Shown: in pieces, positions 11,593 through 46,176 of the stretch
How positions within the stretch are numbered: the first letter of the stretch is position 1
How the letters are laid out: each line of letters opens with the position of its first letter
Assembly (NCBI GenBank): GCA_022511205.1
Contig: JAFLRY010000004.1
Span: 24,202-88,201 of the forward strand
Reading direction: 5' to 3'
DNA from: Eubacterium sp.
GTDB lineage: Bacteria; Bacillota; Clostridia; Oscillospirales; Acutalibacteraceae
DNA: 64,000 bases
The notes under the pieces: model-generated
What the model saw: only the letters and a program-made list of their open reading frames with translations
Database searches by the model: none
Told to the model about the DNA's origin: nothing
Translations under genes and position numbers: made by a program

Positions 11593-11639
11593 ATTAAAAT
11601 TTAAGTTTTTGCAGCAAAAACTTCTCGACTTTCCGCAAA

Positions 11640-11726: not shown

Positions 11727-11760
11727 ATCTATATCCCTCCTTAACTCATTTTCTGCCCAC

Positions 11761-11788: not shown

Positions 11789-12040
11789 CACTATTGTTTT
11801 AAAATAGCTGATATTTATGAAATGTAAACAAAATAATATGATGATAACGATAAATTATGGTTATCTTTTTATTTAAAATATACAAAAATCAGCCTGTTAA
11901 AAGTCTAAATACGGGGCTATGATATCATATGAGTACGGCGATAAAAAATTTGTAAAATCTCGCGATTTTCAAAAATAAATTTCACCAAACTTTACCTTTT
12001 TTACGAGATGTGTTATCATTTGAGAAGGAGAGTTTTAGCT

Positions 12041-12841: not shown

Positions 12842-12851
12842 AGGAGTAAAA

Positions 12852-13553: not shown

Positions 13554-13564
13554 GAGAATGAAAA

Positions 13565-13972: not shown

Positions 13973-14006
13973 AAAAGACGGTAGGGCTTAACCTTACCGT
14001 CTTTTG
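13971..14006. terminator. Bidirectional intrinsic terminator
   Basis: aaaaaagacggtaggg...ccttaccgtctttt between convergent genes. Confidence 0.7.
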
Positions 14007-14017
14007 TTATATGTGTT

Positions 14018-14599
14018 CTATTTTGTATGCTCATCAAGGGTGAGTTCATAAGCGGGCAGAAATTCCTTTCGGAAATATTCAACTTCCGGCATATTGATTT
14101 CTTCAACGATGCGTTTTTGGCTTTCAAGGGCGATCTCAAATTCTCTGTTGCCCATTCGGATCTCCTCAATGCATTTTATCAGCGCGCCGATCTTGTCCGC
14201 CGCCTTAACGATTTTCCAAAGCTCCTCGTCCTCCGTCTGCTTTTCAAACAGGGGAACATAATCTTCTTTTAAATCCTCGGGGAGCATTGCAAGAAGCCTT
14301 TCACCCGCAACTCTTTCGATATCCTTATAAACGCTCTTGATATCCTCGTTGTAATATTTAACAGGCGTTGGCATATCGCCGGTGATGACCTCGGTTGTAT
14401 CATGATACAGCGCCAGCACCGCGCATCTTTCGGCATCGTAATTTTTACCGAATTTTTTATTGCCTATTATGCAAAGGGCGTGGGCGATGACCGCAACGCT
14501 GTGGCTGTGTTCCGCAATATTTTCTTTTGCGGTATTGCGCATAAGCGCCCAGCGGTCGATCAGCTTCATTCTGTTGACCATCGCAAAAAAATTGCTCAT
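14018..14599 (-). CDS. HD-domain phosphohydrolase (YfbR-like 5'-deoxynucleotidase)
   Basis: ENIAEHSHSVAVIA...LYHDTTEVITGD HD motifs. 193 aa. Immediately downstream of aspS. Confidence 0.75.
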   Translation of the reverse strand: MSNFFAMVNRMKLIDRWALMRNTAKENIAEHSHSVAVIAHALCIIGNKKFGKNYDAERCAVLALYHDTTEVITGDMPTPVKYYNEDIKSVYKDIERVAGERLLAMLPEDLKEDYVPLFEKQTEDEELWKIVKAADKIGALIKCIEEIRMGNREFEIALESQKRIVEEINMPEVEYFRKEFLPAYELTLDEHTK

Positions 14600-14601
14600 T
14601 G

Positions 14602-17723: not shown

Positions 17724-17738
17724 TTTATTTCTCCTATC

Positions 17739-17764
17739 AAAAAAGGGTGAGCCAAGCCCACCCC
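17739..17764 (-). terminator. Terminator-like hairpin between mgsA and hisS
   Basis: Minus strand reads GGGTGGGCTTGGCTCACCC followed by TTTTTT, ending about 15 nt before the hisS SD. Confidence 0.45.
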
Positions 17765-17816
17765 GAATATTAGGCAAAGCAAATAAAAATGCGGATTTGG
17801 TTTGCCGGATTGCACA

Positions 17817-18227
17817 TTATGAACTGTAACGTGGGTTTACTATTTCTCTCCATTCAAAATCGCCGCGCTCAAGTCCTCTGATGAGGGCTTCCGAGGTCGC
17901 GATATTCGTTGCGTAGGGGATGTTGTGAACGTCGCAGAGCCTGAGAAGATCGTTGTCGTTAGGCTCGTGGGGCTTGGGATTGAGGGGATCTCTGAAAAAG
18001 ATCATCAGATCGATCTCGTTGCAGGCGATACGGCTCGCAATCTGCTGGCCGCCGCCCTGACTTCCCGCAAGGAAGCAGTTGATATTGAGCCCCGTTGCTT
18101 CCTTAACGAGCTTTCCCGTGGTGCCCGTTGCGCATAGCTCGTGGCGGCTCATGATTCCGCAGTATGCAATGCAGAATTGAACGAGTAACTCTTTTTTTGC
18201 GTCATGTGCTATGAGTGCTATATTCAT
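17817..18227 (-). CDS. mgsA: Methylglyoxal synthase
   Basis: [10 protein letters not shown]...ATGTTG...GGDQQI-like (GGGQQI) signature. 136 aa. Confidence 0.9.
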
Positions 18228-18313
18228 AAATTCCTCCGATTAAGTTTGGTGATAAGATGATAACATAATTGTAAACCTTATTCAATATAAAATCTTAAAA
18301 TATTACAAAATTA

Positions 18314-20335
18314 TCAATCAAGGAGCGTTCCGGTCTGCTGGGCGGGCGGCTCATCGGTGTTGTTTGAATAATAATAATCGATAAGAGCGGCGGTGATCGA
18401 AGAGGTAGAAGTACCTGAACCTGCCCATTCAATTGCGGAGGCGATCGCTATTTCGGGATTTTTATAGGGCGCAAAGGAGATAAGGAAACCGTTGTTGGCT
18501 TTCTTTCCGTTTCGCTGAACAGTTGAAGTACCTGTTTTGCAGGCAACGTCAACCTCAAGCGGGTTATATATGTGCCTGATATCCGTTTCCGTGGCAACTC
18601 TTCTCATACCGGTTTTAACGATGGAGTAGGTCTTATCGGAAATGGGAAGCTCTTCCGCCACCACGATATTTGTATCGTCAACCGAGCCGGTAGAGCTGTC
18701 AATGATCGCCTTAACAAGATGAAGCTCGTATCTCGTACCGCCGTTTGCAATAGTGGCGCAGTAGTTCGCGAGCTGAAGCGGAGTAAAAAGATTGTCCGAC
18801 TGACCGATGGCGCTTTGAACGGTATCACCCGGTCTCCATGTTTTATTATACTTTTCCGCGCTGGCAGGACCTGCCAAAACTCCCGCCGCCTCACTGATCT
18901 CAACACCTGTTTTTTCACCGAGGCCAAACATTGAGGCGTATTCATTCATCTTGGCAATGCCAAGCTTGATGGCGCAGTTGTAGAAGAACGTGTTGCAGGA
19001 ATCGCGTAATGCCCTTGTTACGGACAGTCTTGAGCCATTGCCATGCTTGAGCTGCAGGCATTCAAAGGGATGGTCGTAATATATAAATGTTTTCTGGCAG
19101 GCGAAGGTAGTGTCTTCGGTAATAGCACCCTCCTCCAGCGCCGCGCAGGCCATTGCGGGCTTAAAGGTTGAACCGGGCGCGTAAAGACCGAGAGCAAATC
19201 TGTTATACATCGGCTGCATCGGATCGTTCGCAAGCTTTGAATAATTATTATAGTAATCGTATATATCGTAGGTGGGGTAGGAAGCGGCGCAAAGCACCTC
19301 GCCGGTATGGACCTTTTGAAGAACTACCGCTCCCGCGCCTTGCGTGCGGTTAGCGTCTACGCAGACGTTTTTCAACTCCTCCTGAGCCACGCGCTGAAGA
19401 TCCTTATCGATAGTGAGGACAACGGTGTTTCCCTTAACGGGAGCTTTGGTTACCTCCTCGGTAACGTTGCCCTCGTTGTCTATGGTGATGGTAAGCTCGC
19501 CGGGAGTGCCTCTAAGCACGCTCTCCATAGCGGATTCAATGCCGCTTCCGCCGATCATATCGGAAATGCCGTAGCCGCTTTCCTTCAGCGTTTCGTATTC
19601 GTCGGCATTGATTTTTCTAACCGTGCCGAGGATGTGGGGAGCAAGGGTGGAATCGGTATATTCACGGAAGGAGACTGCCTTAACGTCCGCTCCGCGATAG
19701 CTGACCTGATCCTCCTTGATAGCCGCGACAGTTTCGTTGCTTACATCGTCCGCGATCGTGATGCGGTTTTCGATTGAAAACATTCTCAGTGTAAGCTCGT
19801 AACGTATCCCGCCGATCTTAAGCGCGTCTTTAACGCTGTAATCCTCAAGCCCGTAAAGCTCCACCATAACGTCAAAGCAGTTTTGCGCCGTGGCGTAGCT
19901 CTGAACGTTGAAAGCGCCCGGGCCTTTCATAACGGCAACGGCGTCCTCATCGTCTGTGAAAACCACCTTGTTATTTTTCAGGGCGAGCGGAAGATTGTTT
20001 ACATATTCCTCGTCGCTTTTTTCGAAAAGCTTGATAAGGTTGTATAAAATTTTGTTTCGCGCCGCGTTTTCGGATCTTGGCGGGAAATATGCCGCGTCAA
20101 GAATGATTGAATTCGCAAGACGGTTGGTTACCAGCGTGTTTCCGTTTCTGTCAACTATATCGCCGCGGGCAGCCTCTATCGGCACGGTGTAGGTGCTGAC
20201 AGCGTTGTTTCGTGAAATATAGTATTCGTGATTTACTATCTGAATGTCATAGAGAATATATCCGAAGCCCAATACGATCGCCGCCACTAAAATCAGCGCG
20301 ATCGCCGAGCGGATACTGCTGTGTCTGCCCTTCAC
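18314..20335 (-). CDS. mrdA: Penicillin-binding protein 2 (peptidoglycan D,D-transpeptidase)
   Basis: N-terminal TM anchor plus STFKP (SxxK), SCN (SxN) and KTGTS (KTG) motifs. Downstream of mreBCD. Confidence 0.88.
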   Translation of the reverse strand: MKGRHSSIRSAIALILVAAIVLGFGYILYDIQIVNHEYYISRNNAVSTYTVPIEAARGDIVDRNGNTLVTNRLANSIILDAAYFPPRSENAARNKILYNLIKLFEKSDEEYVNNLPLALKNNKVVFTDDEDAVAVMKGPGAFNVQSYATAQNCFDVMVELYGLEDYSVKDALKIGGIRYELTLRMFSIENRITIADDVSNETVAAIKEDQVSYRGADVKAVSFREYTDSTLAPHILGTVRKINADEYETLKESGYGISDMIGGSGIESAMESVLRGTPGELTITIDNEGNVTEEVTKAPVKGNTVVLTIDKDLQRVAQEELKNVCVDANRTQGAGAVVLQKVHTGEVLCAASYPTYDIYDYYNNYSKLANDPMQPMYNRFALGLYAPGSTFKPAMACAALEEGAITEDTTFACQKTFIYYDHPFECLQLKHGNGSRLSVTRALRDSCNTFFYNCAIKLGIAKMNEYASMFGLGEKTGVEISEAAGVLAGPASAEKYNKTWRPGDTVQSAIGQSDNLFTPLQLANYCATIANGGTRYELHLVKAIIDSSTGSVDDTNIVVAEELPISDKTYSIVKTGMRRVATETDIRHIYNPLEVDVACKTGTSTVQRNGKKANNGFLISFAPYKNPEIAIASAIEWAGSGTSTSSITAALIDYYYSNNTDEPPAQQTGTLLD

Positions 20336-33289: not shown

Positions 33290-34183
33290 TTATTCGATTT
33301 TTTCAACAGGTATCGCTATCCTCGCTCCGTTCTCCGGCTGCGCGCCGTAATTGAAGGACGGCGATTTTTCTTTTATCGGCTTATATCCAAAGCGCGCAAA
33401 ATCGTATTTTTCGATCGCCCTGTCAACACAGCCTATTGCATACGCGAAATCATCCTCATTTTCATATGGCTCGCTTTGAAAATAAAGATAAAGGCTTTCC
33501 GGCAGCTCACTTATCTCGTATCCGGGTATTTCAAAAGGGTAATCGAGCGGAACTTCAACGCCCGCCGCAATTGGCGAATAGCCCTCTTTAATCAAATCAT
33601 CAGGTAATTCAATAAGCGCGGCAGTGTCAAACTTTTCGTTGATGCTGTTCAGCAAGCCTTCCCATTCACAGCCGTTTTCCTCGCAGTAGGATAAATAGCC
33701 GTTTGCGGTTTTGGATCTTTTAAATATCAGCTTCCTTTTCGGCTTCGTTATCAGCGAAACGGTGCATATCATCGAATTTTTATCCATATCTTTTCCCTCA
33801 TTGTTTTTGATAATATGATAATGGTTTATAGGGTATTGAACGAATAAAGGAATCGGGCATGGTTCAATTCTGTATTCTTTGGGAGCAATGGAAAACCTGC
33901 TTTTGAACGCCCTTGTGAAGCCCTCGTGTGATTGAAAATTGCTTTCCAGCGCGATGCTTAAAATCGATTCATCGCTTTTGGAAAGTTTCTTCGCGCTGTT
34001 GGTCAGCATTATTTGTTTAACGTACTCGGCAGGTGTCATATTAAGAAATTCCTTAAACATCCTGTCCGCATGCCGCTTTGAATAGCCTATATAACGGTAG
34101 AGTTTTTCAATGCTGAAATCGTCATCTTCAATATGAGCTTTTATGTAGCGTTGCATTTCAGAAACGATTTTTATTTTGTCCAT
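33290..34183 (-). CDS. AraC-family transcriptional regulator with a GyrI-like effector-binding domain
   Basis: N-terminal AraC HTH (IGYSKRHADRMFKEFLNMTPAEYV...GFQSHEGFTRAFK) and a C-terminal GyrI-like half. Confidence 0.75.
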   Translation of the reverse strand: MDKIKIVSEMQRYIKAHIEDDDFSIEKLYRYIGYSKRHADRMFKEFLNMTPAEYVKQIMLTNSAKKLSKSDESILSIALESNFQSHEGFTRAFKSRFSIAPKEYRIEPCPIPLFVQYPINHYHIIKNNEGKDMDKNSMICTVSLITKPKRKLIFKRSKTANGYLSYCEENGCEWEGLLNSINEKFDTAALIELPDDLIKEGYSPIAAGVEVPLDYPFEIPGYEISELPESLYLYFQSEPYENEDDFAYAIGCVDRAIEKYDFARFGYKPIKEKSPSFNYGAQPENGARIAIPVEKIE

Positions 34184-34844: not shown

Positions 34845-34873
34845 TTGACTTTATAATTTTTGAGATATATAAT
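34845..34873 (+). promoter_or_regulatory. Candidate sigma-A promoter of the sulfoglycolysis-like operon
   Basis: TTGACT (34845-50), 17-nt spacer, TATAAT (34868-73). Confidence 0.45.
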
Positions 34874-34901: not shown

Positions 34902-36893
34902 TTGAGATTTGTGGAAAGCAAAAGGGGCGTTGCCGTTGAAAGAAACGGCAAAACGCTTTATGAGTTTTGCGTTGGCAATGAGTTTTGCCGCCTCGGCGCA
35001 GGGCAAAACGCTTATTCAATGAGCCACGGCAGCTTTAAAATTAAAGAAAAGATCAAATCGAGCGATTCGTTTGATATAAAAGCCGCGTCCGTTGAAAACG
35101 GCGTGCTCATAATCGTTATTGAATGCGGTATTTTTGAAATCAGCATTGACGGCGACCGTATCTGTGTTACGCCGAATGTGCCCGAAAAGTACAACAGAAT
35201 GTGGATAAAGCTTCCCGCAGAAAAGGGCGAAAGTGTTTACGGCTGCGGCGAGATATTCACGGAGTTTGATCTTCGCGGAAAGAACGTGAACGTTTGGGTT
35301 GCCGAGCATATCAACGCTTTGCAAACGGCTAAGAAGATTTTGAAAATGGCGTTCGGCGTGCGCAACACCACGAAGAAGCAGAAATTCAGGAATTACGAGA
35401 CCTATTACGCCGAGCCTACCTTCATCAGCTCGCGCAAATATTATTTCCATTCCGATACCACCGCCAGATGCGAATTTGATTTCACGAATGACAATTATCA
35501 TTTGCTTAAAACGGACAGTATTGCACCGTTTTATATCGGCTTTGCGGATAGTTTCGAACAGCTTGAAGGCGATCTCACCGCTCTGCTCGGTCGCCAGCCT
35601 GAGCTTCCCGATTGGGTGTACGATGGCGCGATCCTCGGCATTCAGGGCGGAACGGACGTTATGATGAGCAAGGTTGATGCCTGCCTTAACGCGAACACCT
35701 CCGTGTGCGGAGTATGGATACAGGACTGGGAGGGCAGGCGCGTTACCGCCGTCGGCAAACAGCTTCAGTGGAACTGGCAGTGGGACGAGGAGCTTTATCC
35801 AAAGCTTGACGAAAAGATCAAAGAGCTGAACGCAAAGGGCATCAAGGTGCTTGGCTACATCAATCCGTTCCTTGCCGTTGAGAAGCCCCTTTATAAAGAG
35901 GCGCACGAAAAGGGCTACTGCGTTAAGAATAAGGACGGCGAGGATTACTACGTTACGATAACCACCTTCCCCGCCGCAATGGTGGATCTCACAAATCCCG
36001 ACGCTTACGAATGGCTCAAAAATATAATCAAAAAGAATATGATCGGTCTCGGTCTTTCGGGCTGGATGGCGGATTTCGGCGAATATCTCCCAACGGACTC
36101 AGTGCTTTTCAGCGGAGAAGACGCGGAGCTTAAGCACAACACTTGGGCGGCGCTTTGGGCAAAACTCAACCGCGAGGCGATAGAGGAGTGTGGCAAGCTG
36201 GGTGAAATCATGTTCTTCACCAGAGCGGGCTATACGGATACGAAAAAATATTCCACGATGATGTGGAACGGCGATAATCACGTTGATTATTCCATAGATT
36301 TCGGCTTGCCCAGCGTTATTCCCGCCGCGCTTTCGCTGACCTGTTGCGGCTTCGGCTTAAGCCATTCCGACGTGGGCGGATACACGACGTTCCTTAATCT
36401 TAAACGCTCCGGCGAGCTCTTTATGCGCTGGGCGGAGATGAATGCCTTTTCGCCGCTTATGCGAAGCCACGAGGGTCTGAATCCGGACGTTAACGCGCAG
36501 TTTGACCACAACGAGGAAGTCCTTAACCACCACGCGAAAATGAGCAGAATTCATAAAGCCTTAAAGCCGTATCTGAAAAAGTGCGTTGAGGAAAACGCCA
36601 ACAGCGGTGCCGGCGTAATCAGACCGCTGTTCTTCCATTATGACGAGCCGGTGGCGTATAAAGAAGCCTATGAATATCTGCTTGGCAGAGATATCCTCGT
36701 TGCACCCGTTATCAAAGAAAACGCGAATAGCAGAAGCGTTTATCTTCCCAATGACCAATGGGTACATCTGTGGAGCGGAAATGAATACGGCGGAGGAACT
36801 TATGATATAAGCTCACCGCTTGGCGAGCCACCCGTATTTATAAGAAAAAACGCGGAAATGTTTGATGAATTATTATCAGTTAAAAACGCTTAA
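34902..36893 (+). CDS. GH31 glycosidase closely resembling sulfoquinovosidase YihQ
   Basis: Long collinear similarity to E. coli YihQ as I recall it (QPELPDW, LGIQGG, WIQDW, WNWQW, GWMADFGEYLPTD, YSTMMWNGD, HSDVGGYTT, LLGRDILVAPV). The start is uncertain: TTG 34902 lies downstream of the candidate -10, while TTG 34860 would give 677 aa. Confidence 0.75.
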   Translation: MRFVESKRGVAVERNGKTLYEFCVGNEFCRLGAGQNAYSMSHGSFKIKEKIKSSDSFDIKAASVENGVLIIVIECGIFEISIDGDRICVTPNVPEKYNRMWIKLPAEKGESVYGCGEIFTEFDLRGKNVNVWVAEHINALQTAKKILKMAFGVRNTTKKQKFRNYETYYAEPTFISSRKYYFHSDTTARCEFDFTNDNYHLLKTDSIAPFYIGFADSFEQLEGDLTALLGRQPELPDWVYDGAILGIQGGTDVMMSKVDACLNANTSVCGVWIQDWEGRRVTAVGKQLQWNWQWDEELYPKLDEKIKELNAKGIKVLGYINPFLAVEKPLYKEAHEKGYCVKNKDGEDYYVTITTFPAAMVDLTNPDAYEWLKNIIKKNMIGLGLSGWMADFGEYLPTDSVLFSGEDAELKHNTWAALWAKLNREAIEECGKLGEIMFFTRAGYTDTKKYSTMMWNGDNHVDYSIDFGLPSVIPAALSLTCCGFGLSHSDVGGYTTFLNLKRSGELFMRWAEMNAFSPLMRSHEGLNPDVNAQFDHNEEVLNHHAKMSRIHKALKPYLKKCVEENANSGAGVIRPLFFHYDEPVAYKEAYEYLLGRDILVAPVIKENANSRSVYLPNDQWVHLWSGNEYGGGTYDISSPLGEPPVFIRKNAEMFDELLSVKNA

Positions 36894-36912: not shown

Positions 36913-37602
36913 ATGAAATATTTTCTTGACAGTGCCAAAATAGACGAGATCAGAGAGGCGTATGACACCTTCGGTATCGACGGCATCACCACCAACCCCA
37001 ACCACATTATGAACTCCGGCAAGCCGTTTTACACGGTAATCAAAGAGCTTGCCGATTTCGTTCGGGAAAAAGGCGTTGAGGGCTGGGATAAATTCCCGAT
37101 CTCCGTTGAGATCAACCCGCATCTTGACGATGCTGACGAAATGGTGGCAATGGGAACGAAAATCGCGGCAATGAGCCCCAATTTCGTTATTAAAATTCCC
37201 TGCACGCAGGCGGGCATCACCGCCGCCAGAAGATTAGAGCAAAAGGGCGTAAGAACGAATCTCACCCTCGTTTTCTCCGCTTCTCAGGCGCTTATTGCCG
37301 CTAAAAACAACTCTCTGTTCGTATCTCCCTTTATCGGCTGGAAGGAGAACAGCGGCGAAGATTGCGTTCAGTACATTCAGGATATCGTAACGATCTATGA
37401 AAATTACGGCTTCCTCGGCAAAACGCAGATCATCTGCGCCGCAGTACGAAACGGAAAGCAGTTCGTTGACTGCGCGGTTGCGGGTGCCGATATCGTAACC
37501 GCCGGGCTTCAGGTTTATAAGGACAGCTTCTATCACCCCTTCACCGATTACGGCCTTGAGAAATTCCAAGCGGCTTGGGACAACACGATTACAGAGGAAT
37601 AA
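36913..37602 (+). CDS. Small Tal/FSA-family class I transaldolase/aldolase; candidate 6-deoxy-6-sulfofructose transaldolase
   Basis: 229 aa. MKYFLDSA...GITTNP start and a Schiff-base lysine context (FVIKIPCT) typical of the FSA/TalB-like subfamily. Operon context. Confidence 0.65.
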   Translation: MKYFLDSAKIDEIREAYDTFGIDGITTNPNHIMNSGKPFYTVIKELADFVREKGVEGWDKFPISVEINPHLDDADEMVAMGTKIAAMSPNFVIKIPCTQAGITAARRLEQKGVRTNLTLVFSASQALIAAKNNSLFVSPFIGWKENSGEDCVQYIQDIVTIYENYGFLGKTQIICAAVRNGKQFVDCAVAGADIVTAGLQVYKDSFYHPFTDYGLEKFQAAWDNTITEE

Positions 37603-37615
37603 CGGAGACAGACAA

Positions 37616-38482
37616 ATGAAAATAGGATTTATCGGGCTCGGCATTATGGGCGAGTCCATGAGCGAAAATATAGTAAAAAAGCATAACGATAAGGTGTTTG
37701 TCAGCGATCTCAACAAGTCACAGGTGGAAAAGCTTGCCGCGGTTGGCGCGGTTCCCTGCGACAGCAATATCGAGGTCGCGAAAAACGCGGATGTAATTAT
37801 CACAATGGTGCCGAAATCGGAGCATGTTAAGGCGGTTTATACGGAAATTCTTGACGAGATCAATGAGGGCAAGATATGCATTGATATGAGCACGATCGAT
37901 CCCTCCGTTTCCGTTGAGGTATCCAAAATGATAAAAGCAAAGGGCGCTCAGTTTGCGGATGCGCCCGTTGTTAAATCAAAGCCCGCCGCGATCGAGGGTA
38001 CGCTCGGCGTGCTTGTGGGCTGTGACGAGGAGCTTTTCCCCGTGATCGAGCCGATTTTAAAGTATATGGGCTGTAACGTTATCCGCATGGGCGAAAACGG
38101 CAAGGGTCTCGTTATGAAAATTTGCCACAATGCCCTTTGCGCCGAGATACAGAACGGTGTGAACGAAACCCTTATTCTTGCCCGCAAAATGGGCATTTCC
38201 ACGGAGGATTACCACACCGCCATTTCCTACGGCGGCGCCCAGTGCTTCTATCTTGACGCTCAGTGGAAAAATATAGACAGCGAGAATTGGGCAACTGCCT
38301 TCTCTCTTGAAAATGAAAACAAAGATTTGGGCATTTGCCAAAGACTTGCCGCTGAAACCGAAACGCCTATGCCCGGCATGGAAACTGCCAAGGCGGTTTA
38401 CGCCAAGGGTATGGAAGCAGGCATCGGCAAGGAGGACTGGCGCGCCACCTATAAGGTGGTAAGAGGCGATTACGATGCTTAA
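37616..38482 (+). CDS. Beta-hydroxyacid dehydrogenase family NAD(P)H oxidoreductase; candidate sulfolactaldehyde reductase (YihU-like)
   Basis: MKIGFIGLGIMGESM Rossmann start and the 3-hydroxyisobutyrate dehydrogenase-like core. GGAGA precedes the ATG at 37616. Confidence 0.65.
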   Translation: MKIGFIGLGIMGESMSENIVKKHNDKVFVSDLNKSQVEKLAAVGAVPCDSNIEVAKNADVIITMVPKSEHVKAVYTEILDEINEGKICIDMSTIDPSVSVEVSKMIKAKGAQFADAPVVKSKPAAIEGTLGVLVGCDEELFPVIEPILKYMGCNVIRMGENGKGLVMKICHNALCAEIQNGVNETLILARKMGISTEDYHTAISYGGAQCFYLDAQWKNIDSENWATAFSLENENKDLGICQRLAAETETPMPGMETAKAVYAKGMEAGIGKEDWRATYKVVRGDYDA

Positions 38483-39140
38483 GCACCTGAACAGCGTTAA
38501 CGACGTTAAGATCTATTCCGTTTTTGATGATGCGTTTAAAAGCTACGGCAGGGTTCATGCAGGCTTTGATCTGAGCGAACTTACAGGCTATATGGAAAGC
38601 GAAACTGCCGTGCCGGAAAGCGGAAACGTTTACGTTCCCTCGGTTGAAGCGATGGAAAACACCGAGGCGTGCGATATTATTAGAAAAACAGTATACGGCG
38701 CTATGCCGATTCAAATCGGCTACTGCAACGGTAGGAATACCACGTATAACGGCTTTGAATATCACAAATGCAGTGAGATAAATATAGCCGTTACCGATTT
38801 TATGCTGGTGCTTGGGCACGTTTGGCAGATAGAAGATAATCAGTTTTTCGTGGGCAACGAAAGGGTTTTCTTCGTGCCGAAGGGAACTATGCTGGAAATG
38901 TTCCAGACAACGCTTCATTTAAGCCCCTGCGCGGTGAGCGACGAGGGCTTTAAGGATATCGTTATCCTTGCAAAAGGCACGAATACTCCTCTTGAAAGCC
39001 CGAAGCAGATCGTTACAGATGAGGATGCGCTCCTGCTTCAAAAGAATAAATGGGTCATCGCCCATAAAGATCGAGAGCCACTTGTTCGCCAGGGCGCGCA
39101 TATCGGGCTCATCGGCGAAAATAAAGAACTCAAATATTAA
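38475..39140 (+). CDS. Cupin-like protein of unknown function (DUF4867-like)
   Basis: 221 aa. The start overlaps the reductase stop (ATGCTTAA). Beta-rich with conserved His/Glu positions. The family assignment is from memory of DUF4867 proteins in sulfo-TAL clusters. Confidence 0.45.
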   Translation: MLKHLNSVNDVKIYSVFDDAFKSYGRVHAGFDLSELTGYMESETAVPESGNVYVPSVEAMENTEACDIIRKTVYGAMPIQIGYCNGRNTTYNGFEYHKCSEINIAVTDFMLVLGHVWQIEDNQFFVGNERVFFVPKGTMLEMFQTTLHLSPCAVSDEGFKDIVILAKGTNTPLESPKQIVTDEDALLLQKNKWVIAHKDREPLVRQGAHIGLIGENKELKY

Positions 39141-39155: not shown

Positions 39156-40490
39156 ATGAAATTTGAATGCGCATATATTCCAATCGGCGTGCCGACCTTT
39201 CATCTGGAATCAGCCCAAAGGGAATTTGAAAATTCAATATCAATGCTTAAAAGTGTGTGCGAGGATATAAAATATCCCGATGAAATGCTTCTTTCTATTG
39301 ATAAGCTGAAAGCGTTTCTCGATACGCTTGCTCCGCAGCTCGTTATCGTTCAGAATATCACGTTCGCAAACGCGGCGTATATCAGCGAGGTATTAAAGTA
39401 TTTCGACTGCCCCGTACTGCTCTGGACGCTCCGCGAGCCTGTTATTGACGGCGGCAGACTTCGCCTTAATTCGCTGACGGGCGCGTTTTCCGCGGCAAAT
39501 ACTATGGCGGCGCTTGGCAGGCATTTTGAATACGTGTTCGGTTCTCCCGCAGAGGAAAGCGTTCGGCAAAAGATAAAAGCGGTTGTTTCAGCTGCTAAGC
39601 TTAAGTCCGCAATGAAAGCGCTGAAGCTTGTTCAAATAGGTCACACTCCCCAGGGCTTCGGCTTCGGCAGAGCGAATGATAATGAAATGCTCAAAAACTT
39701 CGGCGTAACGCTCGATTCCATTGAAGCGAGGGAGCTTATCGACAAGGCAAAGGCATATACCGATGATGAAGCCGCCGAGTATCTTGAAAAGGCGGCAGGT
39801 TGCATAAACTGCCTGTCTGACATTCCCGAAAAAAACAGACTTGATTTCGCAAGGCTCTATAAGGCGTATTACGAATTCTGCCGCGATAACGGAGTGGGCG
39901 CGATAGCTTCCCGCTGTTGGCCCGATTTCTTCGTATCCTTCGGTACGCCCGTCTGCTCAGCGCTCGCAATGCTGAACGATCTCGGTATACCTGCCGCCTG
40001 TGAGGCAGACGCTTACGGCGCGCTTTCAATGTTCGCGGCGCAGTATTTAACGGGCAATCCCGCCTTTTTCGGCGATCCTGTTTCAATGGATGAGGGCGAA
40101 AACACTATCACTTTCTGGCATTGCGGTACCGCCGCCTGCTCTCTTGCCCGCGAGGATACGGGTGCCGTGGCGGACGTTCATTGCAACCGGAAGATAGGTC
40201 CTACCCTTGATTTCGGTTGCAAGCCCTGTGATGCCGCAACGATCATCAGAATCGGCAAAAAAGCAAACGGCGATTTTAGAATTTTCGTTTCTGTTGGCGA
40301 AATACTTGATAAGCCGAAGCAGTTTAACGGCACTTCGCTGGTGGTCAAAACGAAATCCAATGCCGCTGAGATCATCAACAGGGCGGTCAAGGACGGCTGG
40401 GAGCCGCACTTTGCCGTTAGCTACGGCAATATCAGCGAGGAAATGAAAGCCCTCGGCGGCATGCTTGGCATTGAGGTAGTTTGCTACTGA
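39156..40490 (+). CDS. L-fucose/L-arabinose isomerase-like sugar isomerase; candidate aldose-ketose isomerase of the pathway
   Basis: 444 aa. N-terminal Rossmann-like half and C-terminal ACEADAYGALS / FWHCG segments reminiscent of FucI-type isomerases. Operon context. Confidence 0.5.
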   Translation: MKFECAYIPIGVPTFHLESAQREFENSISMLKSVCEDIKYPDEMLLSIDKLKAFLDTLAPQLVIVQNITFANAAYISEVLKYFDCPVLLWTLREPVIDGGRLRLNSLTGAFSAANTMAALGRHFEYVFGSPAEESVRQKIKAVVSAAKLKSAMKALKLVQIGHTPQGFGFGRANDNEMLKNFGVTLDSIEARELIDKAKAYTDDEAAEYLEKAAGCINCLSDIPEKNRLDFARLYKAYYEFCRDNGVGAIASRCWPDFFVSFGTPVCSALAMLNDLGIPAACEADAYGALSMFAAQYLTGNPAFFGDPVSMDEGENTITFWHCGTAACSLAREDTGAVADVHCNRKIGPTLDFGCKPCDAATIIRIGKKANGDFRIFVSVGEILDKPKQFNGTSLVVKTKSNAAEIINRAVKDGWEPHFAVSYGNISEEMKALGGMLGIEVVCY

Positions 40491-41221
40491 TGATTGAAAA
40501 AATAATTTTTGAAATAATCGTTTTCCTTTCCAACATAATTCAGTGTATAACGGGCTTTGCGGGAACGGTGCTTGCCATGCCCTTTTCGGTTATGCTGGTG
40601 GGATACGATACGGCAAAGCCGATCCTGAATATCCTCGGCATTGCCGCGTCAATCGGCGTGTTGCTCGCCGATCGGAAGAGCGTTAATAAAAAGGAATTCA
40701 TAAAAATTATTTCCGTAATGTTCGCGGGAATTATTGCCGGAATGTTCCTTGCCTCATTCTTTAAAGGCAATGCCTCCATTCTTTATAAATTGCTTGGAAC
40801 GATCGTAATTATTTTTGCCCTCGTCAACGGCATAAAGTTTTTAAAGAAAAAGGAGAGCGCGGAGTTAAATCCGGTCGCCTCCTACGCGATTCTCATTGCG
40901 GCAGGCGTGGTTCACGGAATGTTCGTTTGCGGCGGTCCGCTTCTTGTAACCTACGCTTCAATGAAGCTCAGGGATACTAAGGAATTCAGGGCAACGCTTT
41001 CCGCCGTGTGGATAGTATTAAACACGGTGATCCTTTTCGGCGATATAGGAAACGGATATTTCAGCGGCGATGTCTTAATGCTTACCGCGATTTCCCTGAT
41101 AGTTCTCATTGGCGCAGTTTGGCTCGGCAACCTCATAAGCAAAAAGCTCAGCAAAAAAGTCTTTTTAGTTTTAACGTATATTCTTATGCTGATAAGCGGC
41201 ATATCTTTATTTGTAAAATAG
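40490..41221 (+). CDS. TauE/SafE (TSUP) family anion exporter; candidate organosulfonate exporter
   Basis: Roughly 7-8 TM helices with a two-fold repeat. Length and G-rich helices are typical of TauE/SafE. The ATG overlaps the isomerase stop (TGATG). Confidence 0.6.
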   Translation: MIEKIIFEIIVFLSNIIQCITGFAGTVLAMPFSVMLVGYDTAKPILNILGIAASIGVLLADRKSVNKKEFIKIISVMFAGIIAGMFLASFFKGNASILYKLLGTIVIIFALVNGIKFLKKKESAELNPVASYAILIAAGVVHGMFVCGGPLLVTYASMKLRDTKEFRATLSAVWIVLNTVILFGDIGNGYFSGDVLMLTAISLIVLIGAVWLGNLISKKLSKKVFLVLTYILMLISGISLFVK

Positions 41222-41307: not shown

Positions 41308-42735
41308 ATGGAAGAAAAAATGCAGACACACGGTATTAAATTTAAAGACAAGTTCGGCTACGCGCTGGGCGATATGGGCGGGCTTTTGTCCTTCTCACTT
41401 ATCGCGGCATTCCTGAATATGTTTTATACCGACGTTCTCGGAATCTCCGCCGGCGCGATAACCGTACTCATGATCGTCGCCAGAGTTTGGGACGCGGTGA
41501 ACGATCCTATCTGGGGCGCGTTTATCGATTCAAGAAAGCCCACTAAGCACGGACGTTTCAGACCTTATATCCTTTGGGCTTCGTTCCCATTGGCTGTGGG
41601 CGCGTTCCTGATGTTTTTCAAGATCCCGGGGCTTTCGGATAATCAGTATCTCATCTTTGCCTACATAACCTATATTTTCTACGGAATGATGTACACGGGC
41701 GTTAACATTCCCTACGGCTCACTTGCCTCCGTTATAACGGATGATGAGATCGAGCGTTCATCGCTTTCCATGTGGAGATCAATCGGCGCAGGCATCGGCG
41801 GTCTGCCGGCACAGATCCTGCTTCCGCTGGTGGTTTACTCAACGGTAGTTACTGCGGACGGCTCAAGCGCAAAGGTTCTTGATCCTACCAAGCTCTCCAT
41901 AGCCGTTGGCTGCCTTGCGGTTTTGTCAATAATCATATTCCTTGCGCATTTCAAGCTGACCAAGGAAAGAGTTCTGCTGCCACCTACCCAAAAGCAGAGC
42001 GATTTCAACGTTTTGCAAACGATCAAGGTACTTATCAAAAACAAGCCCTTCCTCATTCTCTGCGGCGTTTCAATGCTTCTCATCTGCTTCCAGATGTATA
42101 CCCAGACGGTTTACAACTATCTTTTCAAAAACTATTTTGAAAAGCCGGGTCTTTACAGCATAGTTACTATATGTACCTATCTCCCAATGGCAATGTTCCT
42201 GCCGATCATGGGCAAACTTATCAAAAAATACGGCAAAAAAGAGATATGTGCTGTTGGTCTCGGTTTCGCGGCGGCTATCAACGTTATCATGTATCTTGTG
42301 GGCTTTACGGCGGCTGCCTCAAATCCCTACATATTCCTTGGCCTCGTATTCTTATCGGGCGCAGGGCAGACCTTCCTTGTGCTTGAGGTTTGGGCGCTTG
42401 TTATGGACGTTATCGACTATCAGGAATTTCTTTCAGGCAGACGCGAAGAAGGCACTTCCTACAGCTTCTATTCATTCGCGAGAAAGCTTGGCCAAACCAT
42501 CGCCGGCGCCGGCGCTTCCGCGATACTCGGCTTCATTGGCTATGACGGCAAGCTTGCCACTCAGCCTCCCGAGGTTTTAACGAAGCTCTATGACGCGGCA
42601 ACCCTTGTTCCCGCTATCATTCTCGTGATCATGTTCGTTCTTACGGCCTTCTGCTATAAGCTTTCGAAGAAAGAGCTTGAAAAGCTTCATAATAATATTG
42701 AAATTATGAGGGAGAATAAGGAAAAAGGAATATAA
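41308..42735 (+). CDS. GPH-family (MelB/YihO-like) glycoside:cation symporter
   Basis: FGYALGDMGG and RVWDAVNDPIWG signature of glycoside-pentoside-hexuronide transporters. 12 TM helices. Confidence 0.8.
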   Translation: MEEKMQTHGIKFKDKFGYALGDMGGLLSFSLIAAFLNMFYTDVLGISAGAITVLMIVARVWDAVNDPIWGAFIDSRKPTKHGRFRPYILWASFPLAVGAFLMFFKIPGLSDNQYLIFAYITYIFYGMMYTGVNIPYGSLASVITDDEIERSSLSMWRSIGAGIGGLPAQILLPLVVYSTVVTADGSSAKVLDPTKLSIAVGCLAVLSIIIFLAHFKLTKERVLLPPTQKQSDFNVLQTIKVLIKNKPFLILCGVSMLLICFQMYTQTVYNYLFKNYFEKPGLYSIVTICTYLPMAMFLPIMGKLIKKYGKKEICAVGLGFAAAINVIMYLVGFTAAASNPYIFLGLVFLSGAGQTFLVLEVWALVMDVIDYQEFLSGRREEGTSYSFYSFARKLGQTIAGAGASAILGFIGYDGKLATQPPEVLTKLYDAATLVPAIILVIMFVLTAFCYKLSKKELEKLHNNIEIMRENKEKGI

Positions 42736-42738
42736 GCA

Positions 42739-45237
42739 ATGAAAGAAAATAAGATCCACGTTGCATACGGCTTTCACGTTAACTGCTATCATTCCTACAG
42801 GGGCGATACGAACGATAATCTCGGCTTCGGCTCGGATATCAGAATTATCAGAAAAACGATTGACGTTTTAAACAAATTCAACGAAGAGGGAATTCCCGTT
42901 AAGGCAACCTGGGATACGGAAAATTTCTTTTCCCTTGAGAAAATTCTGCCCGAATATGCCCCCGATATCATCGAGGGAATGAAGGAACGCGTTGAGAAAT
43001 ACGGCGATGAGAATATCATTATGGGCTACAACAACGGCGCGCTATCCGCTATGACGGAGGATGAGTTCTGCGCCTCCGTTGACCTTGCCGTAACGAATCC
43101 CGAGGGTTCGGGGCTTGCCGATATTTTCGGCACCTGTGAAAAGATCGTAAGACCGCAGGAGGTTATGTTCACTCCCTCGCAGGTAACACTTTATAATAAG
43201 CTTGGCGTAAAGGCGCTTTGCCTTTACTACAGCTGCGTTCCCTTTGACGCTTTCAGAACGATCGTTCCGAAGCTTCCCGATGAGATCGCCTTTAACCCGG
43301 TTACCTATACCTACAAGGGTGAGCGCATGACGATCATTCCCACCTACAGCAATTCCGACGTATGCGACGCGGGCTGTCTCAGAGCGTGGGTCAAGGAGCT
43401 TCACGCAAAGCAGGAGAGCGGCGAGATCAACAGCGATCTGTTCATTTTTATCAATATGGATGCGGACGGAATATTCTGGGAAACGCTGGATTTAGGACCG
43501 CTCACCGGCAAGATCGCCAATACGGACGGCATTCACGGCCTCGTTAAGGAGATCGCCGATCTGCCCTATATCGTTTACGATACGCCCGGCGGATATCTCA
43601 AAAACCACAAGCCGATCGGCAGTATTGAATTCACTCACGACACGGCGGACGGCAACTTTACCGGCTACGCTTCATGGTCCGAAAAGCCCTTCAACAGAAA
43701 AATCTGGACTTCCCTTGAGCGTGCCAGAGCAATGGCAAAGATCAACGCCGCCGAGGATAGGCTATCGCCCTCGTTTAAAGACAGAGTGCTTCTGCTTTCC
43801 ACCACCCATTTCGGTCTCGCAACGCCGGTCCTCAACATTCAAAGAGAGAAAACGGCGCTGGAGCTTGCCGAAAAGGTTGTTGAAGCAGAGCTTAAAGCCC
43901 TGCCCAAAGTTGAAAAGATCACGCTTTACAATATTTCAAGATCCAATTTCCAGTGCGTTCAGCTTAAGCTGAATGAAAAGATAGAGGACATCGGAAAGCT
44001 CACTGTTAAGGGCAGCGGGTTAAAGGATTGGTCGCTCATTCCAATGGATGATGAAACCTCCTCCGTTTTTGCAATGCTCAGGTTTGGCGCGGTTCGCGAT
44101 AAGTATGAGATCGAGATCACCCAAAACGGCAGAAGGAAGAAAAGGGAATTCTCAAACGTTGTTGCCAGCGATAAGTTGACGATGAAATTCTCCGTTCACG
44201 GCAATCTCTATGAGGTGTCGAGTGACGGCAAAATTCTCGGCGATGAGGAATTTTTCAAAAGCTTTATCACCTACGATAATAAGGAATATTCTTTTGATAA
44301 AAAGACTGCGACCGCGCTCAACTGCGCGGGGAGCGCAAACGGCGTTCGCGTGAGCGGAGAGATTCATCTTCCCGATGAACTTCACGCGGGGCATTTTGAG
44401 TATGATTTCTTTACGATTAAAAGCTCAAGCGCGGTGTTCGCGAGGATAAACGTACAGTACCCCTATACCTCTGAAAACACCTCAATTTCAACGGAGAATT
44501 CATCTCTCGGCAGATATTCCGATATGAAGTGGACCGAGGCGGTCCCGCTCCAAATAACCCCGAAGCTCAGCGGTGATATTTCAGTTGTTAAGCGCAATTT
44601 TATGGAGGACGTTTCAAGCTTCAGAACCCAGTCCTTCCCCGAATGTGACGACAAAAACGATCAGCTTGCTTCCTTTAATCATCAGCTTACGGGCGGATTC
44701 GTGGGGCTGACCGATGAAAACGGCGGTATCATTATCGCCAACGCGCGCCAAGTCCTCAATTCCATGGCACATTGCCCTATGCGCCTTGAAAAGGATAAGA
44801 CCGTTCGTATGAATCCATTCGGCACTTATTACGGAAAACAGCGCCACCACTGGGGCAGGGCGAAGGACGAGATCCTCGCCACCTACACGCTCGTTACTCC
44901 GCAGGGCAAATCGATAGCACCATCGTATAACGGCAACGCAGAAACGGCTATGCTGGCGTTTTACGCCGTAGATACTCCGATCCCCACAGACGATGAACGC
45001 AAAGAGATCAACGCCTTTGCGGACGGCTGTGTAGCGGTCGCTCCCGAGGGCGCGCTCGTTCAGGCGTTTTGCGGCGATAATGTTGTTATCAAAGCGGCGA
45101 ATGCGGACGGTGTTGACGAGAAAGACCTCAAAAGTCCCGTGCTTTCAGGCCTCAACGGCAACCTTATGAATTACATAGCAAAAGGCGCAAAAGCTATCAG
45201 CCATATAGTTGCAACCCAAATCAAAAACAGAAAGTGA
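42739..45237 (+). CDS. 832-aa cytoplasmic protein of unknown function with GH38/GH57-like features
   Basis: No signal peptide or TM helix. The N-terminal VAYGFHVNCYHSYRGD segment and the C-terminal NHQLTGGFVGLTDENGGIIIAN beta-sandwich-like region are reminiscent of the GH38/GH57/CE4 (beta/alpha)7 superfamily. Starts 3 nt after the transporter stop. Confidence 0.35.
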   Translation: MKENKIHVAYGFHVNCYHSYRGDTNDNLGFGSDIRIIRKTIDVLNKFNEEGIPVKATWDTENFFSLEKILPEYAPDIIEGMKERVEKYGDENIIMGYNNGALSAMTEDEFCASVDLAVTNPEGSGLADIFGTCEKIVRPQEVMFTPSQVTLYNKLGVKALCLYYSCVPFDAFRTIVPKLPDEIAFNPVTYTYKGERMTIIPTYSNSDVCDAGCLRAWVKELHAKQESGEINSDLFIFINMDADGIFWETLDLGPLTGKIANTDGIHGLVKEIADLPYIVYDTPGGYLKNHKPIGSIEFTHDTADGNFTGYASWSEKPFNRKIWTSLERARAMAKINAAEDRLSPSFKDRVLLLSTTHFGLATPVLNIQREKTALELAEKVVEAELKALPKVEKITLYNISRSNFQCVQLKLNEKIEDIGKLTVKGSGLKDWSLIPMDDETSSVFAMLRFGAVRDKYEIEITQNGRRKKREFSNVVASDKLTMKFSVHGNLYEVSSDGKILGDEEFFKSFITYDNKEYSFDKKTATALNCAGSANGVRVSGEIHLPDELHAGHFEYDFFTIKSSSAVFARINVQYPYTSENTSISTENSSLGRYSDMKWTEAVPLQITPKLSGDISVVKRNFMEDVSSFRTQSFPECDDKNDQLASFNHQLTGGFVGLTDENGGIIIANARQVLNSMAHCPMRLEKDKTVRMNPFGTYYGKQRHHWGRAKDEILATYTLVTPQGKSIAPSYNGNAETAMLAFYAVDTPIPTDDERKEINAFADGCVAVAPEGALVQAFCGDNVVIKAANADGVDEKDLKSPVLSGLNGNLMNYIAKGAKAISHIVATQIKNRK

Positions 45238-45244: not shown

Positions 45245-46138
45245 ATGTCATTCGTAATAAAAGCAATGGGGAAATTCTGGGAGAGCAATTCCAAAAAGGA
45301 CGCAAGGCTTCGTGCCACCCAGACCGAGCCGGAGGGAATAGAGAGGATTTACGATATTCCCTATATTGATGACGGCGATAAATATCATCTGCTGGATGTT
45401 TACTATCCCGAAAACAGAGACGGAAATCTCCCCGTAATAATAGACGTTCACGGCGGAGGTTGGATGGCAAACGTTAAGGATTTCAACCGCCTTTATTGCC
45501 TGCACCTTGCTAAGAGGGGATACACGGTATTTAATATGAATTACCGGCTTGTTCCCTCCGTAACCGTTAAGGAACAGCTTCAGGACGTTGCCTGCGCCAT
45601 AAAATGGATAGGGGAGCATATGGCGGAATATCCCTGCGATACGGATAAGATAATGCTCACTGGCGATTCTGCGGGCGGTCAGCTTGCTTCTTACGCCGCA
45701 GTCATGATGAAGTGTGAGGAGCTTCGCCGAGTATTCGAAACTGTTGATTTTGATATGAAGCTTTCCGCCCTTGCACTTACTTCGCCCGTTGCCTATATGA
45801 ATAAATGCGGCGTTATGAGCATTTATACAAGGCAGATGTGGGGCGATTACAAAAATAGCGAACATGGCAAATATATGGATTTTGACGATATCGCTCATTT
45901 AGCACCGCTTCCGCCGACTTATCTTGTAACAAGCAGCGGCGATTCGATGGGCAGAAAAACCACACGCAGAGCGGCGGAGAAGATAAAGCAAACGGGAAGC
46001 GAATACAAGCTTCACGATTATCCCAAATATGAGGGAAAGCATCTTCCCCATGTTTTCGCCGTGCTTCGCCCCGAAAGCAAAGCCGGAAGCGAGCAGATAG
46101 ACGAGATGCTTGAATTTTTCAGAAAACATATTGGATAA
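45245..46138 (+). CDS. Alpha/beta-hydrolase esterase (HSL/Aes-like family)
   Basis: VHGGGW oxyanion motif and GDSAGG nucleophile elbow. The start is ambiguous: ATG 45245, or 45209 overlapping the previous gene. Confidence 0.7.
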   Translation: MSFVIKAMGKFWESNSKKDARLRATQTEPEGIERIYDIPYIDDGDKYHLLDVYYPENRDGNLPVIIDVHGGGWMANVKDFNRLYCLHLAKRGYTVFNMNYRLVPSVTVKEQLQDVACAIKWIGEHMAEYPCDTDKIMLTGDSAGGQLASYAAVMMKCEELRRVFETVDFDMKLSALALTSPVAYMNKCGVMSIYTRQMWGDYKNSEHGKYMDFDDIAHLAPLPPTYLVTSSGDSMGRKTTRRAAEKIKQTGSEYKLHDYPKYEGKHLPHVFAVLRPESKAGSEQIDEMLEFFRKHIG

Positions 46139-46140: not shown

Positions 46141-46176
46141 AAAATCCCCTGCGCAACGCGCAGGGATTTCTTTTTA
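46141..46176. terminator. Bidirectional terminator closing the operon
   Basis: aaaatcccctgcgc-aacg-cgcagggattt followed by CTTTTT. Lies between convergent genes. Confidence 0.65.

Follow-up and report, generated by a model that had tools for sequence, protein, structure and literature searches.

A GH57-like protein family linked to an SftA-like importer and, recurrently, to sulfoquinovose genes in gut Clostridia

Introduction

Breakdown of the plant sulfosugar sulfoquinovose by gut and rumen Clostridia feeds producers of hydrogen sulfide, and most rumen YihQ genes are held, according to the literature, by Acutalibacteraceae and Oscillospiraceae. Of the whole pathway, its entry is understood least, namely which glycosides the cells take up, how acyl groups are removed and which enzyme frees the sugar. 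Here, we analyzed a 64,000-nucleotide stretch of the genome of a Eubacterium sp. of the Acutalibacteraceae (GenBank assembly GCA_022511205.1, contig JAFLRY010000004.1, positions 24,202 to 88,201; hereafter the window), in which an operon of sulfoglycolysis genes also encodes an 832-amino-acid (aa) protein that we call the target. An earlier note, written from the letters of the window, had described the target as a cytoplasmic enzyme with features of glycoside hydrolase (GH) families 38 and 57. What would such an enzyme do beside a sulfoquinovose pathway and its importer?

On balance, we favor the view that the target is a conserved soluble enzyme, remotely related to GH57, that acts as a retaining alpha-glycosidase or transglycosidase on the cargo of an SftA-type importer, as an accessory front-end step.

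The target gene and its family

The window contains one copy of the target, an open reading frame (ORF) with an ATG start, 832 codons and a TGA stop at 45235-45237 (Table 1). A Shine-Dalgarno-like AAAGGA lies about 9 nt 5' of the ATG (42739), and 3 nt separate this ATG from the stop codon of the importer gene (TAA, 42733-42735). Downstream, TTG 45209 is a possible first codon of the esterase ORF and would give a 29-nt overlap with the 3' end of the target. The esterase start is more likely ATG 45245, after a 7-nt gap, because the esterases of relatives (loci L005 and L007) start 7-8 nt after the target stop. No signal peptide was found at the N-terminus of the target protein, and its maximum Kyte-Doolittle mean over a 19-residue window is 1.2, under the requirement for a transmembrane helix. 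Thus the start 3 nt past the transporter gene, the end that abuts or overlaps the esterase gene and the cytoplasmic location, all read from the letters in the earlier note, stand.

Judged from its homologues, the target is beyond doubt a genuine coding gene. A large protein collection holds 911 homologues, the best 120 of which are 69-93% identical and of equal length, and an exhaustive search returned 385 clusters (50% identity level) that match the target at E ≤ 1e-3. Herbivore, human and rodent guts are the source of the close relatives, which belong to metagenome-assembled genomes (MAGs) of Acutalibacteraceae, Candidatus Fimenecus and other Oscillospirales. Further Oscillospiraceae and Clostridiales have cytoplasmic forms at 43-50% identity. 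In Anaerolineae (Chloroflexi), the protein is about 1000 aa long, with a fibronectin-III domain and an N-terminal signal or anchor.

Linkage to an importer and to sulfoquinovose genes

YihQ-like or other sulfoglycolysis markers are present in 16 of 171 target loci, which were collected via the target protein itself. The linked loci fall into two deep clades of the target tree, about 47% identical to each other, and show at least four gene orders. One clade is wholly linked to sulfoglycolysis genes as far as its contigs reach. The other forms the basal part of the Acutalibacteraceae clade and includes the window. Relatives at 74-93% identity hold the target in the same operon position as in the window, and clusters with other orders hold homologues that are 46-49% identical.

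Three distant homologues were chosen solely for their long contigs, and two of them proved to lie in sulfo-transaldolase clusters with differing gene orders. In L092, an oppositely oriented AraC gene is followed by the target, GH31, MFS_2, transaldolase, reductase, DUF4867, TauE and isomerase genes; in L094, the order is MFS_2, target, GH31, transaldolase, reductase and isomerase. The third homologue (L093) abuts an operon for glycerol kinase and glycerol-3-phosphate dehydrogenase. Metagenome loci yield further copies of the arrangement in the window as well as two others, esterase, a gene of no known type, GH31, MFS_2 and target (L098 and L099) and DUF4867, GH31, MFS_2 and target (L143). The absence of the gene from otherwise syntenic clusters of relatives, which the earlier note had named as counting against its reading, did not occur: the target is present even in distant clusters with other gene orders.

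The importer of the window's operon is an SftA-like symporter of the MFS_2 type. At least 1.6 kb of sequence flanks the target on each side in 102 loci; of these, 25 have an MFS_2 gene immediately next to it and 46 have one within 5 kb. The SftA-like transporters beside the target (more than 20 loci) form one orthogroup, whose branching mirrors the target tree and which is the same in all sulfoglycolysis clusters. This orthogroup includes pairs of transporter and target without a GH31 gene within 10 kb on both sides (L122 and L144) or within the 10 kb that the contig covers upstream (L033). In termite-gut loci, the gene after the target encodes an MFS_2 of another type, and the two form an isolated pair with unrelated genes around them. 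Based on the MFS_2 adjacency and on the mirrored trees, the evolutionarily stable unit is the importer plus the target enzyme, which is part of a sulfoquinovose cluster in two old lineages.

Esterases also recur. In the genome set, BD-FAE/Abhydrolase_3 esterases lie within about 5 kb of the target in about 23 loci, in several arrangements, and alpha/beta-hydrolases of the Hydrolase_4 type are directly beside the target in two other lineages.

Several other features of these loci were recorded. Just 5' of the GH31/MFS_2/target module, L099 (5027-6133) and L143 (2808-3875 and 3872-5710) contain ORFs of 368, 355 and 612 aa without a Pfam match; both are high-GC metagenome contigs with no transaldolase gene within 10 kb. 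Directly after the sulfoglycolysis cluster of L094, and in no other locus, are genes for UxuA, a short-chain dehydrogenase (SDR) and a 2-keto-3-deoxy-6-phosphogluconate (KDPG)-aldolase-type protein (15922-18466), a set for hexuronate catabolism. In L019 (4479-6593, minus strand) and seven other loci, a 705-aa protein without a Pfam match is conserved beside the target. With MFS_2, a 2-hydroxyacid dehydrogenase and a xylose-isomerase-like TIM barrel, it forms a unit that is a candidate glycoside-utilisation locus.

Two Candidatus Fimenecus MAGs have two target copies each (L033 and L053 on JAZLET010000052.1 and JAZLET010000103.1; L055 and L062 on JAZNIQ010000273.1 and JAZNIQ010000045.1). The L033 copy is paired with an SftA-like MFS_2 that is 64% identical to that of the window, and no other sulfoglycolysis gene lies in the 10 kb upstream; its genome has another copy in a housekeeping-type context. 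In L178, from an Oscillospirales-type MAG, the target faces a genuine GH38 alpha-mannosidase gene (973 aa; 12523-15444, minus strand) in convergent orientation, and a phosphoglucomutase gene is 3 kb away. Among the secreted Chloroflexi forms, a GH79 gene (11021-12808) overlaps the target stop in L091, and in L090 the target directly follows a GntR/FCD regulator gene (7274-7993), with MFS_2 and dihydrodipicolinate synthase (DHDPS)-family genes near. These neighbors hint that the ancestral family perhaps acts on extracellular plant or microbial glycans. An alpha-glucuronidase was considered because of the GntR/FCD regulators, GH79, DHDPS and UxuA/Eda genes near single loci. It was dropped, as UxuA and DHDPS were each found in one locus and GH79 had one further, weak match at 24% identity.

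Fold and family assignment

The target has no match in Pfam, even at E ≤ 1, or in NCBIfam, and no sequence match in the PDB was found with phmmer or with profiles of 41 and 71 relatives. Its fold was therefore sought in models. Residues 1-392 were modeled alone with AlphaFold2 (AF2), using 48 diverse sequences taken from the homologue loci (pLDDT 88, pTM 0.88). The model contains barrel strands at residues 6-14, 56-60, 91-95, 134-138, 159-163, 195-203 and 234-241, followed by helices at 309-387, that is, the barrel and helical bundle described for GH57 (PMC6037648). In a Foldseek search of the PDB with this domain, the top 18 matches are all GH57. The best is the 4-alpha-glucanotransferase of Thermococcus litoralis (E 1.9e-11, template modeling (TM) score 0.62-0.64), and branching enzymes, amylopullulanases and AmyC follow. 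GH38 enzymes are three to four orders of magnitude behind (about 1e-7). Deacetylase-type barrels, with ArnD and a putative hydrolase/deacetylase, reach only E ~1e-4, and the deacetylase branch (CE4-like, ArnD), marked by a metal-binding Asp-His-His site, thus does not hold the nearest structures.

The full-length AlphaFold model (pLDDT 74, pTM 0.78) matches bacterial GH38 alpha-mannosidases across the whole chain (E ~1e-21 to 4e-21, TM 0.55, including 5KBP and 2WYI), in keeping with the GH38 architecture of barrel, helical linker and beta-sandwich; Golgi mannosidase II and the T. litoralis GH57 enzyme are next. The C-terminal sandwich also matches polysaccharide lyase family 26 (PL26). Where the full-length model is poor, the loops are among the best conserved of the protein, as would be typical of active-site loops that depend on a ligand.

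From these models, the catalytic domain is a remote GH57 relative, and a large C-terminal beta-sandwich gives the whole chain its GH38-like shape. The GH57 relationship is proposed because the top 18 PDB matches are GH57, because GH38 enzymes and deacetylases are behind, and because distant members come near the threshold of the GH57 model: two of them score 19-20 bits against Pfam GH57 (PF03065), below the cut-off of 21.2. The sequence signature of GH57 (five conserved regions; PF03065 at gathering score) is absent from the target, as are the GH38 domains PF01074, PF09261 and PF07748. An hhalign comparison with the genuine GH38 of L178 gave an insignificant probability of 2.7%. That alignment puts the conserved D128-I-F-G opposite the GH38 motif LPDVFG, at what is, in the model, a short helix before beta4 and not a strand end; being insignificant, the pairing of D128 (DxFG) with the GH38 nucleophile motif was not used. 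Since the sequence signatures of both families are lacking, we file the target in neither, and the description that best suits the models is that of a new family without a characterised member, or of a deep GH57-like branch, in a genomic role that is new as well.

These results agree with what the earlier note had proposed, namely an N-terminus like the GH38/GH57 barrel, here a GH57/GH38-type (beta/alpha)7 domain, a GH38-like C-terminal beta-sandwich and no assignment to a known family. A confident match to a characterised family with an unrelated role did not appear.

Conserved residues and a proposed active site

Across the 48 diverse N-terminal domains, H13, H18, R21, D23, D59, N99, E141, D207, D241, D243 and W247 are invariant and N15 is nearly so. 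In the model, H13, N15, H18, D59, N99, E141, D207, D241, D243 and W247 lie at or just past the C-terminal ends of the seven barrel strands. We take this to be the active site because such barrels carry their active sites at these strand ends. In the widest family set, E141 is conserved in 63 of 71 members and D241 in 67 of 71. GH57 enzymes are retaining; their nucleophile is a Glu at beta4 and their proton donor an Asp at beta7 (PMC6037648), and the model places Glu141 and Asp241 correspondingly. From position and conservation, we predict that the two are the catalytic pair. By eye, RPQE (around Glu141) resembles conserved sequence region (CSR) 3 of GH57 and NMDAD (around Asp241) resembles CSR-4.

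In the C-terminal region, N647 is nearly invariant among 71 diverse members and Q649 and T651 are frequent; P575, N647, P680, P693 and G695 are conserved in loops. The motifs that the earlier note quoted from both ends of the protein thus exist and are conserved (invariance over the 48 N-terminal domains, and the 71-member set for the C-terminal motif). Invariant basic residues near the barrel mouth are H13, H18, R21, R84, K316, R330 and R369.

The operon in the window

The operon consists of homologues of SftG, SftT, SftR, SftX, SftI, SftE and SftA, the target and an esterase (Table 1). SftG, T, R, X, I, E and A are the gene set of the sulfofructose transaldolase pathway in Bacillus and in Eubacterium rectale (PMC7491151, PMC11968277), and the role of DUF4867/SftX in sulfoglycolysis clusters has been described (PMC11968277). 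Based on the tight spacing and on scans for promoter and terminator consensus, nine genes probably share one transcript, the target being the eighth. The scan found no strong terminator-like site inside the operon, and the sole strong one, which is bidirectional, follows the esterase gene. The co-expression proposed in the earlier note is borne out to this extent. Taken as a whole, that note was confirmed in its observation and supported in its interpretation of co-expression, location and fold, and every part of it that could be checked held.

SftA has been annotated as a sugar:cation symporter of the major facilitator superfamily (MFS) type (PMC7491151). The SftA-like MFS_2 is the sole importer in the window's operon and in the operons of relatives. 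A tblastn search for its identity against plasmid records gave at best 39% identity, with no informative annotation. The esterase occupies the same position in L005, L007 and L010. Some relatives have a ROK-family gene with an N-terminal helix-turn-helix (HTH) between the TauE and MFS_2 genes (L005 7525-8556, L009 7448-8560, L008 2868-3968). It is absent from the window's operon, which has only the divergent AraC regulator.

Table 1 Features of the operon, the target gene and the modeled target protein (positions in the window)
Feature	Position	Strand	Basis
AraC-family regulator, divergent from operon	33290..34183	-	Pfam HTH_18 and HTH_AraC
Sigma-70-like promoter match, best of region (TTGACT-17-TATAAT, 11/12)	34845..34873	+	Consensus match only
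YihQ-type GH31 (SftG-like)	34902..36893	+	Pfam GH31; listed from TTG 34860, likely start TTG 34902 after GGGGTGA
SftT-like transaldolase	36913..37602	+	Pfam TAL_FSA, E 1.7e-42
SftR-like sulfolactaldehyde reductase	37556..38482	+	Pfam NAD_binding_2 and NAD_binding_11; provisional ORF start, relatives 288 aa
SftX (DUF4867)	38475..39140	+	Pfam DUF4867, E 7.6e-73
SftI-like sulfoquinovose isomerase	39156..40490	+	Pfam Fucose_iso_C, weak; position kept in clusters of relatives
TauE/SafE-type exporter (SftE-like)	40481..41221	+	Pfam TauE
SftA-like MFS_2 (GPH family) glycoside:cation symporter	41308..42735	+	Pfam MFS_2, E 1.2e-82
Target gene, 832-aa cytoplasmic GH57-like protein	42739..45237	+	ORF call, homologues, fold model, hydropathy
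Catalytic domain, residues 1-392, (beta/alpha)7 barrel and helical bundle	42739..43914	+	AF2 model; Foldseek
Glu141 codon (RPQE), proposed nucleophile	43159..43161	+	Inference; 3 residues after beta4 (134-138)
Asp241 codon (NMDAD), proposed acid/base	43459..43461	+	Inference; last residue of beta7 (234-241)
C-terminal beta-sandwich (residues ~393-780) and terminal helix (800-831)	43915..45237	+	DSSP of full model; Foldseek GH38/PL26
HSL-type carboxylesterase (BD-FAE/Abhydrolase_3), last operon gene, cytoplasmic	45245..46138	+	Pfam; nearest structure 4N5H esterase B, E 2e-39; no signal peptide
Bidirectional terminator-like hairpin, strong, ends operon	46147..46165	+	8-9 bp, 7 GC pairs, T-runs on both strands

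The GH31 of the operon matches E. coli YihQ (5AED) at E 2e-195 and the tested E. rectale SftG (6PNR) at E 1.9e-186. Its true start is more likely the later of the two TTG codons, because the earlier one falls inside the promoter-like site, because GGGGTGA precedes the later one and because the resulting 663 aa are the length found in relatives. In its motif GKQLQWNW (codons near 35760), this protein has Gln where E. coli YihQ has Arg301, a residue of the Q/E-RWY motif that recognises the sulfonate (PMC12780224). The equivalents of the other signature residues, Q262, Q288, W304 and Y508, are kept. Gln occupies the Arg301 position in all 13 GH31 proteins encoded beside the target (13/13). Arg (GKR..W) is found there in four solved sulfoquinovosidases, E. 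rectale SftG among them, and in three plasmid-borne proteobacterial YihQs.

Discussion

In the mechanism that we favor, the SftA-like MFS_2 symporter would import an alpha-linked glycoside into the cytoplasm. There the target, translated in close coupling with the importer gene within the sulfo-transaldolase operon, would cleave or remodel the glycoside by a retaining mechanism, with Glu141 as nucleophile and Asp241 as acid/base. It would act beside the YihQ-type GH31 and the cytoplasmic carboxylesterase, as an accessory entry step in the use of sulfoquinovose glycosides. We infer that the target acts on the cargo of the importer because the importer is its evolutionarily stable partner. The presence of a cytoplasmic HSL-type esterase would imply that an acylated substrate reaches the cytoplasm.

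The observations expected of an accessory member of a sulfo-transaldolase cluster were made: the target shares one probable transcription unit with the Sft homologues, and its linkage extends beyond close relatives and is independent of gene order. We regard the target as accessory rather than as a core member of the pathway because most copies in crown Acutalibacteraceae lie elsewhere.

Several points weigh against this mechanism. About 80 loci of crown Acutalibacteraceae and Fimenecus, with most of the target copies, are not near sulfoglycolysis genes. Contexts of this kind are varied and often housekeeping (ilvD/ilvC, a low-molecular-weight (LMW) phosphatase, chromate transporters), the neighbors of two homologues at 70-74% identity are unrelated genes, and about 10 of 80 species-level genomes show the sulfoglycolysis context. 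As the clusters were collected via the target, the counts do not give the share of sulfoglycolysis clusters that carry it. A second glycosidase is not required by the sulfo-transaldolase pathway as described, and such a gene is missing from the descriptions of the E. rectale and Bacillus clusters (PMC7491151, PMC11968277); no mention of such an enzyme was found in the sulfoglycolysis literature that we searched. No RNA runs holding this stretch were found, and two DNA runs share 5-6% of its words. No sequence method connects the protein of the window to GH57, and its proposed catalytic residues are placed by the model and by conservation rather than by a residue-level superposition on a solved GH57 enzyme. 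Finally, no convincing residues are shared by the two sulfo-linked clades yet absent elsewhere. A role confined to sulfoquinovose clusters is therefore improbable, and the enzyme probably performs the same chemistry in all genomic contexts.

Within the favored mechanism, three kinds of substrate are candidates. A sulfoquinovoside is favored by the link to the importer and by the many invariant basic residues. A neutral alpha-glycoside of the same dietary origin, for example digalactosylglycerol, through its alpha-galactosyl unit, or another glycosylglycerol, is favored because isolated pairs occur, because glycerol and esterase genes are among the neighbors and because GH57 alpha-galactosidases exist. 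Alpha-glucans are favored by the fold only, with no annotated neighbor in support.

A bolder reading of the locus, which we regard as doubtful, is that the target founds a new GH57-related GH family acting directly on sulfoquinovose glycosides delivered by SftA-type importers, together with the Gln301 GH31 and the esterase. It would then be a structurally unrelated further sulfoquinovosidase, or an enzyme for an unrecognised sulfoquinovoside with an acylated or otherwise substituted headgroup. If this is true, entry into sulfoglycolysis in gut and rumen Clostridia differs from the E. coli and E. rectale model.

Unlikely, in our judgment, is the related explanation that the target itself is a sulfoquinovosidase of a new family, or cleaves a sulfoquinovoside that the GH31 cannot, so that the role of the Arg-less GH31 would have shifted. 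Sulfoquinovose is alpha-linked in sulfoquinovosyl diacylglycerol (SQDG), and the target is the gene most tightly tied to the SftA-like importer, also in the pairs with no GH31 in reach. The activities of GH57 and GH38 enzymes among the PDB matches and in PMC6037648 are all on alpha-linked sugars. An anionic group could be bound by the invariant basic residues at the barrel mouth. The Gln at the Arg301 position of every adjoining GH31, where characterised sulfoquinovosidases carry Arg, would fit this explanation, but we treat it as a trait of the clade and not as a sign of coupling to the target. Against this explanation, most family members are not near sulfoglycolysis genes, no residues specific to the sulfo-linked copies were found, and the isolated target/MFS_2 pairs among housekeeping genes suggest products that need no special pathway.

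MFS_2 transporters are classically paired with alpha-glycosidases, as in melAB and yicIJ. The MFS_2/target pair might likewise be a self-contained module for a neutral alpha-glycoside, unrelated to the sulfosugar and riding with the use of thylakoid-lipid headgroups; it could serve raffinose-type sugars, a glycosylglycerol or the alpha-galactosyl unit of digalactosylglycerol. Such pairs do stand alone in termite-gut and other loci, esterases and lipase-like alpha/beta-hydrolases of two families recur beside the target, and its homologue in L093 abuts the glycerol kinase and glycerol-3-phosphate dehydrogenase operon. GH57 also includes an alpha-galactosidase and alpha-galactosidase-related enzymes (PMC6037648). 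We nevertheless consider an unrelated module quite unlikely: this MFS_2 is the sole importer of the sulfoglycolysis operon and belongs to the orthogroup found in all such clusters, and the target is not merely appended, as in L094 it separates the MFS_2 and GH31 genes and in L092 it is the first gene of the operon.

A housekeeping alpha-glucan enzyme of the GH57 type (4-alpha-glucanotransferase, amylase or branching enzyme), whose place in the operon would be inherited synteny without function, seems very unlikely. It would fit the best structural match, the label 'glycosyl hydrolase family 57' that NCBI gives to some homologues, the wide and strong conservation in Acutalibacteraceae whatever the context, and the phosphoglucomutase gene near the target in L178. 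However, no glycogen or starch gene was found among about 50 annotated neighbor proteins (36 of them representatives of recurrent neighbor families), the Pfam GH57 model does not match the target, MFS_2 genes are strongly enriched beside it, and the sulfoglycolysis linkage recurs in several gene orders and in two clades with only about 47% identity between them. That the target is not a hydrolase, and is instead a glycoside phosphorylase or transferase, or a deacylase of the 'glycoside hydrolase/deacetylase' barrel superfamily that works with the esterase, is highly improbable: the superfamily includes deacetylases, the weak ArnD-type matches among them, esterases recur and many basic residues are conserved, but every deacetylase match is weaker than those to GH57 and GH38 by 4 to 7 orders of magnitude, a Glu after beta4 with an Asp at beta7 is a glycosidase arrangement, and we know of no retaining phosphorylase of this fold.

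The linkage of the target across distant gut and rumen Clostridia suggests an undescribed step in the entry of sulfoquinovose. As a conserved GH57-like enzyme in co-evolution with the importer, the target is a clonable candidate for a missing or alternative entry step, and its coupling to the importer in at least four operon layouts would be unexpected to a specialist. The target also marks a structurally defined protein family that has neither a Pfam model nor a characterised member. This family probably counts as a new GH family, or as a deep GH57 subfamily, even if the substrate is an ordinary alpha-glycoside.

Comparison with known systems

The closest structural relative, the GH57 4-alpha-glucanotransferase of T. 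litoralis (1K1W/1K1X), shares with the modeled target a (beta/alpha)7 barrel, a helical bundle and a C-terminal beta-sandwich, with a Glu after beta4 and an Asp at beta7. The target differs in sequence (about 15% identity, with no Pfam GH57 or HMM match to a solved GH57) and in its C-terminal region, which is much larger and has invariant loops of its own. Unlike the genes of GH57 glucan enzymes, its neighbors are a glycoside symporter and sulfoglycolysis genes, not alpha-glucan genes. The bacterial cytoplasmic GH38 alpha-mannosidases of Enterococcus faecalis (5KBP) and Streptococcus pyogenes (2WYH/2WYI) resemble the target in multidomain architecture and length, whereas the target has no GH38 Pfam domains, a catalytic domain nearer to GH57 and no clearly recognisable GH38 metal motif.

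In genomic setting, the target resembles the sulfoquinovosidases (YihQ/SftG of GH31, SqgA of GH188 and SqgH). It is cytoplasmic, its gene lies beside a sulfoquinovose glycoside importer, and its presumed substrate is an alpha-linked glycoside of the entry step. However, its fold is unrelated to theirs and it coexists with a YihQ-type GH31 in the same operon. The melAB and yicIJ pairs each combine a GPH-family symporter with a cytoplasmic alpha-glycosidase, of GH4/GH36 and of GH31, respectively. The isolated target/MFS_2 pairs of many loci follow the same logic of an MFS_2 importer and a cytoplasmic glycosidase, with a GH57-like enzyme in place of these families.

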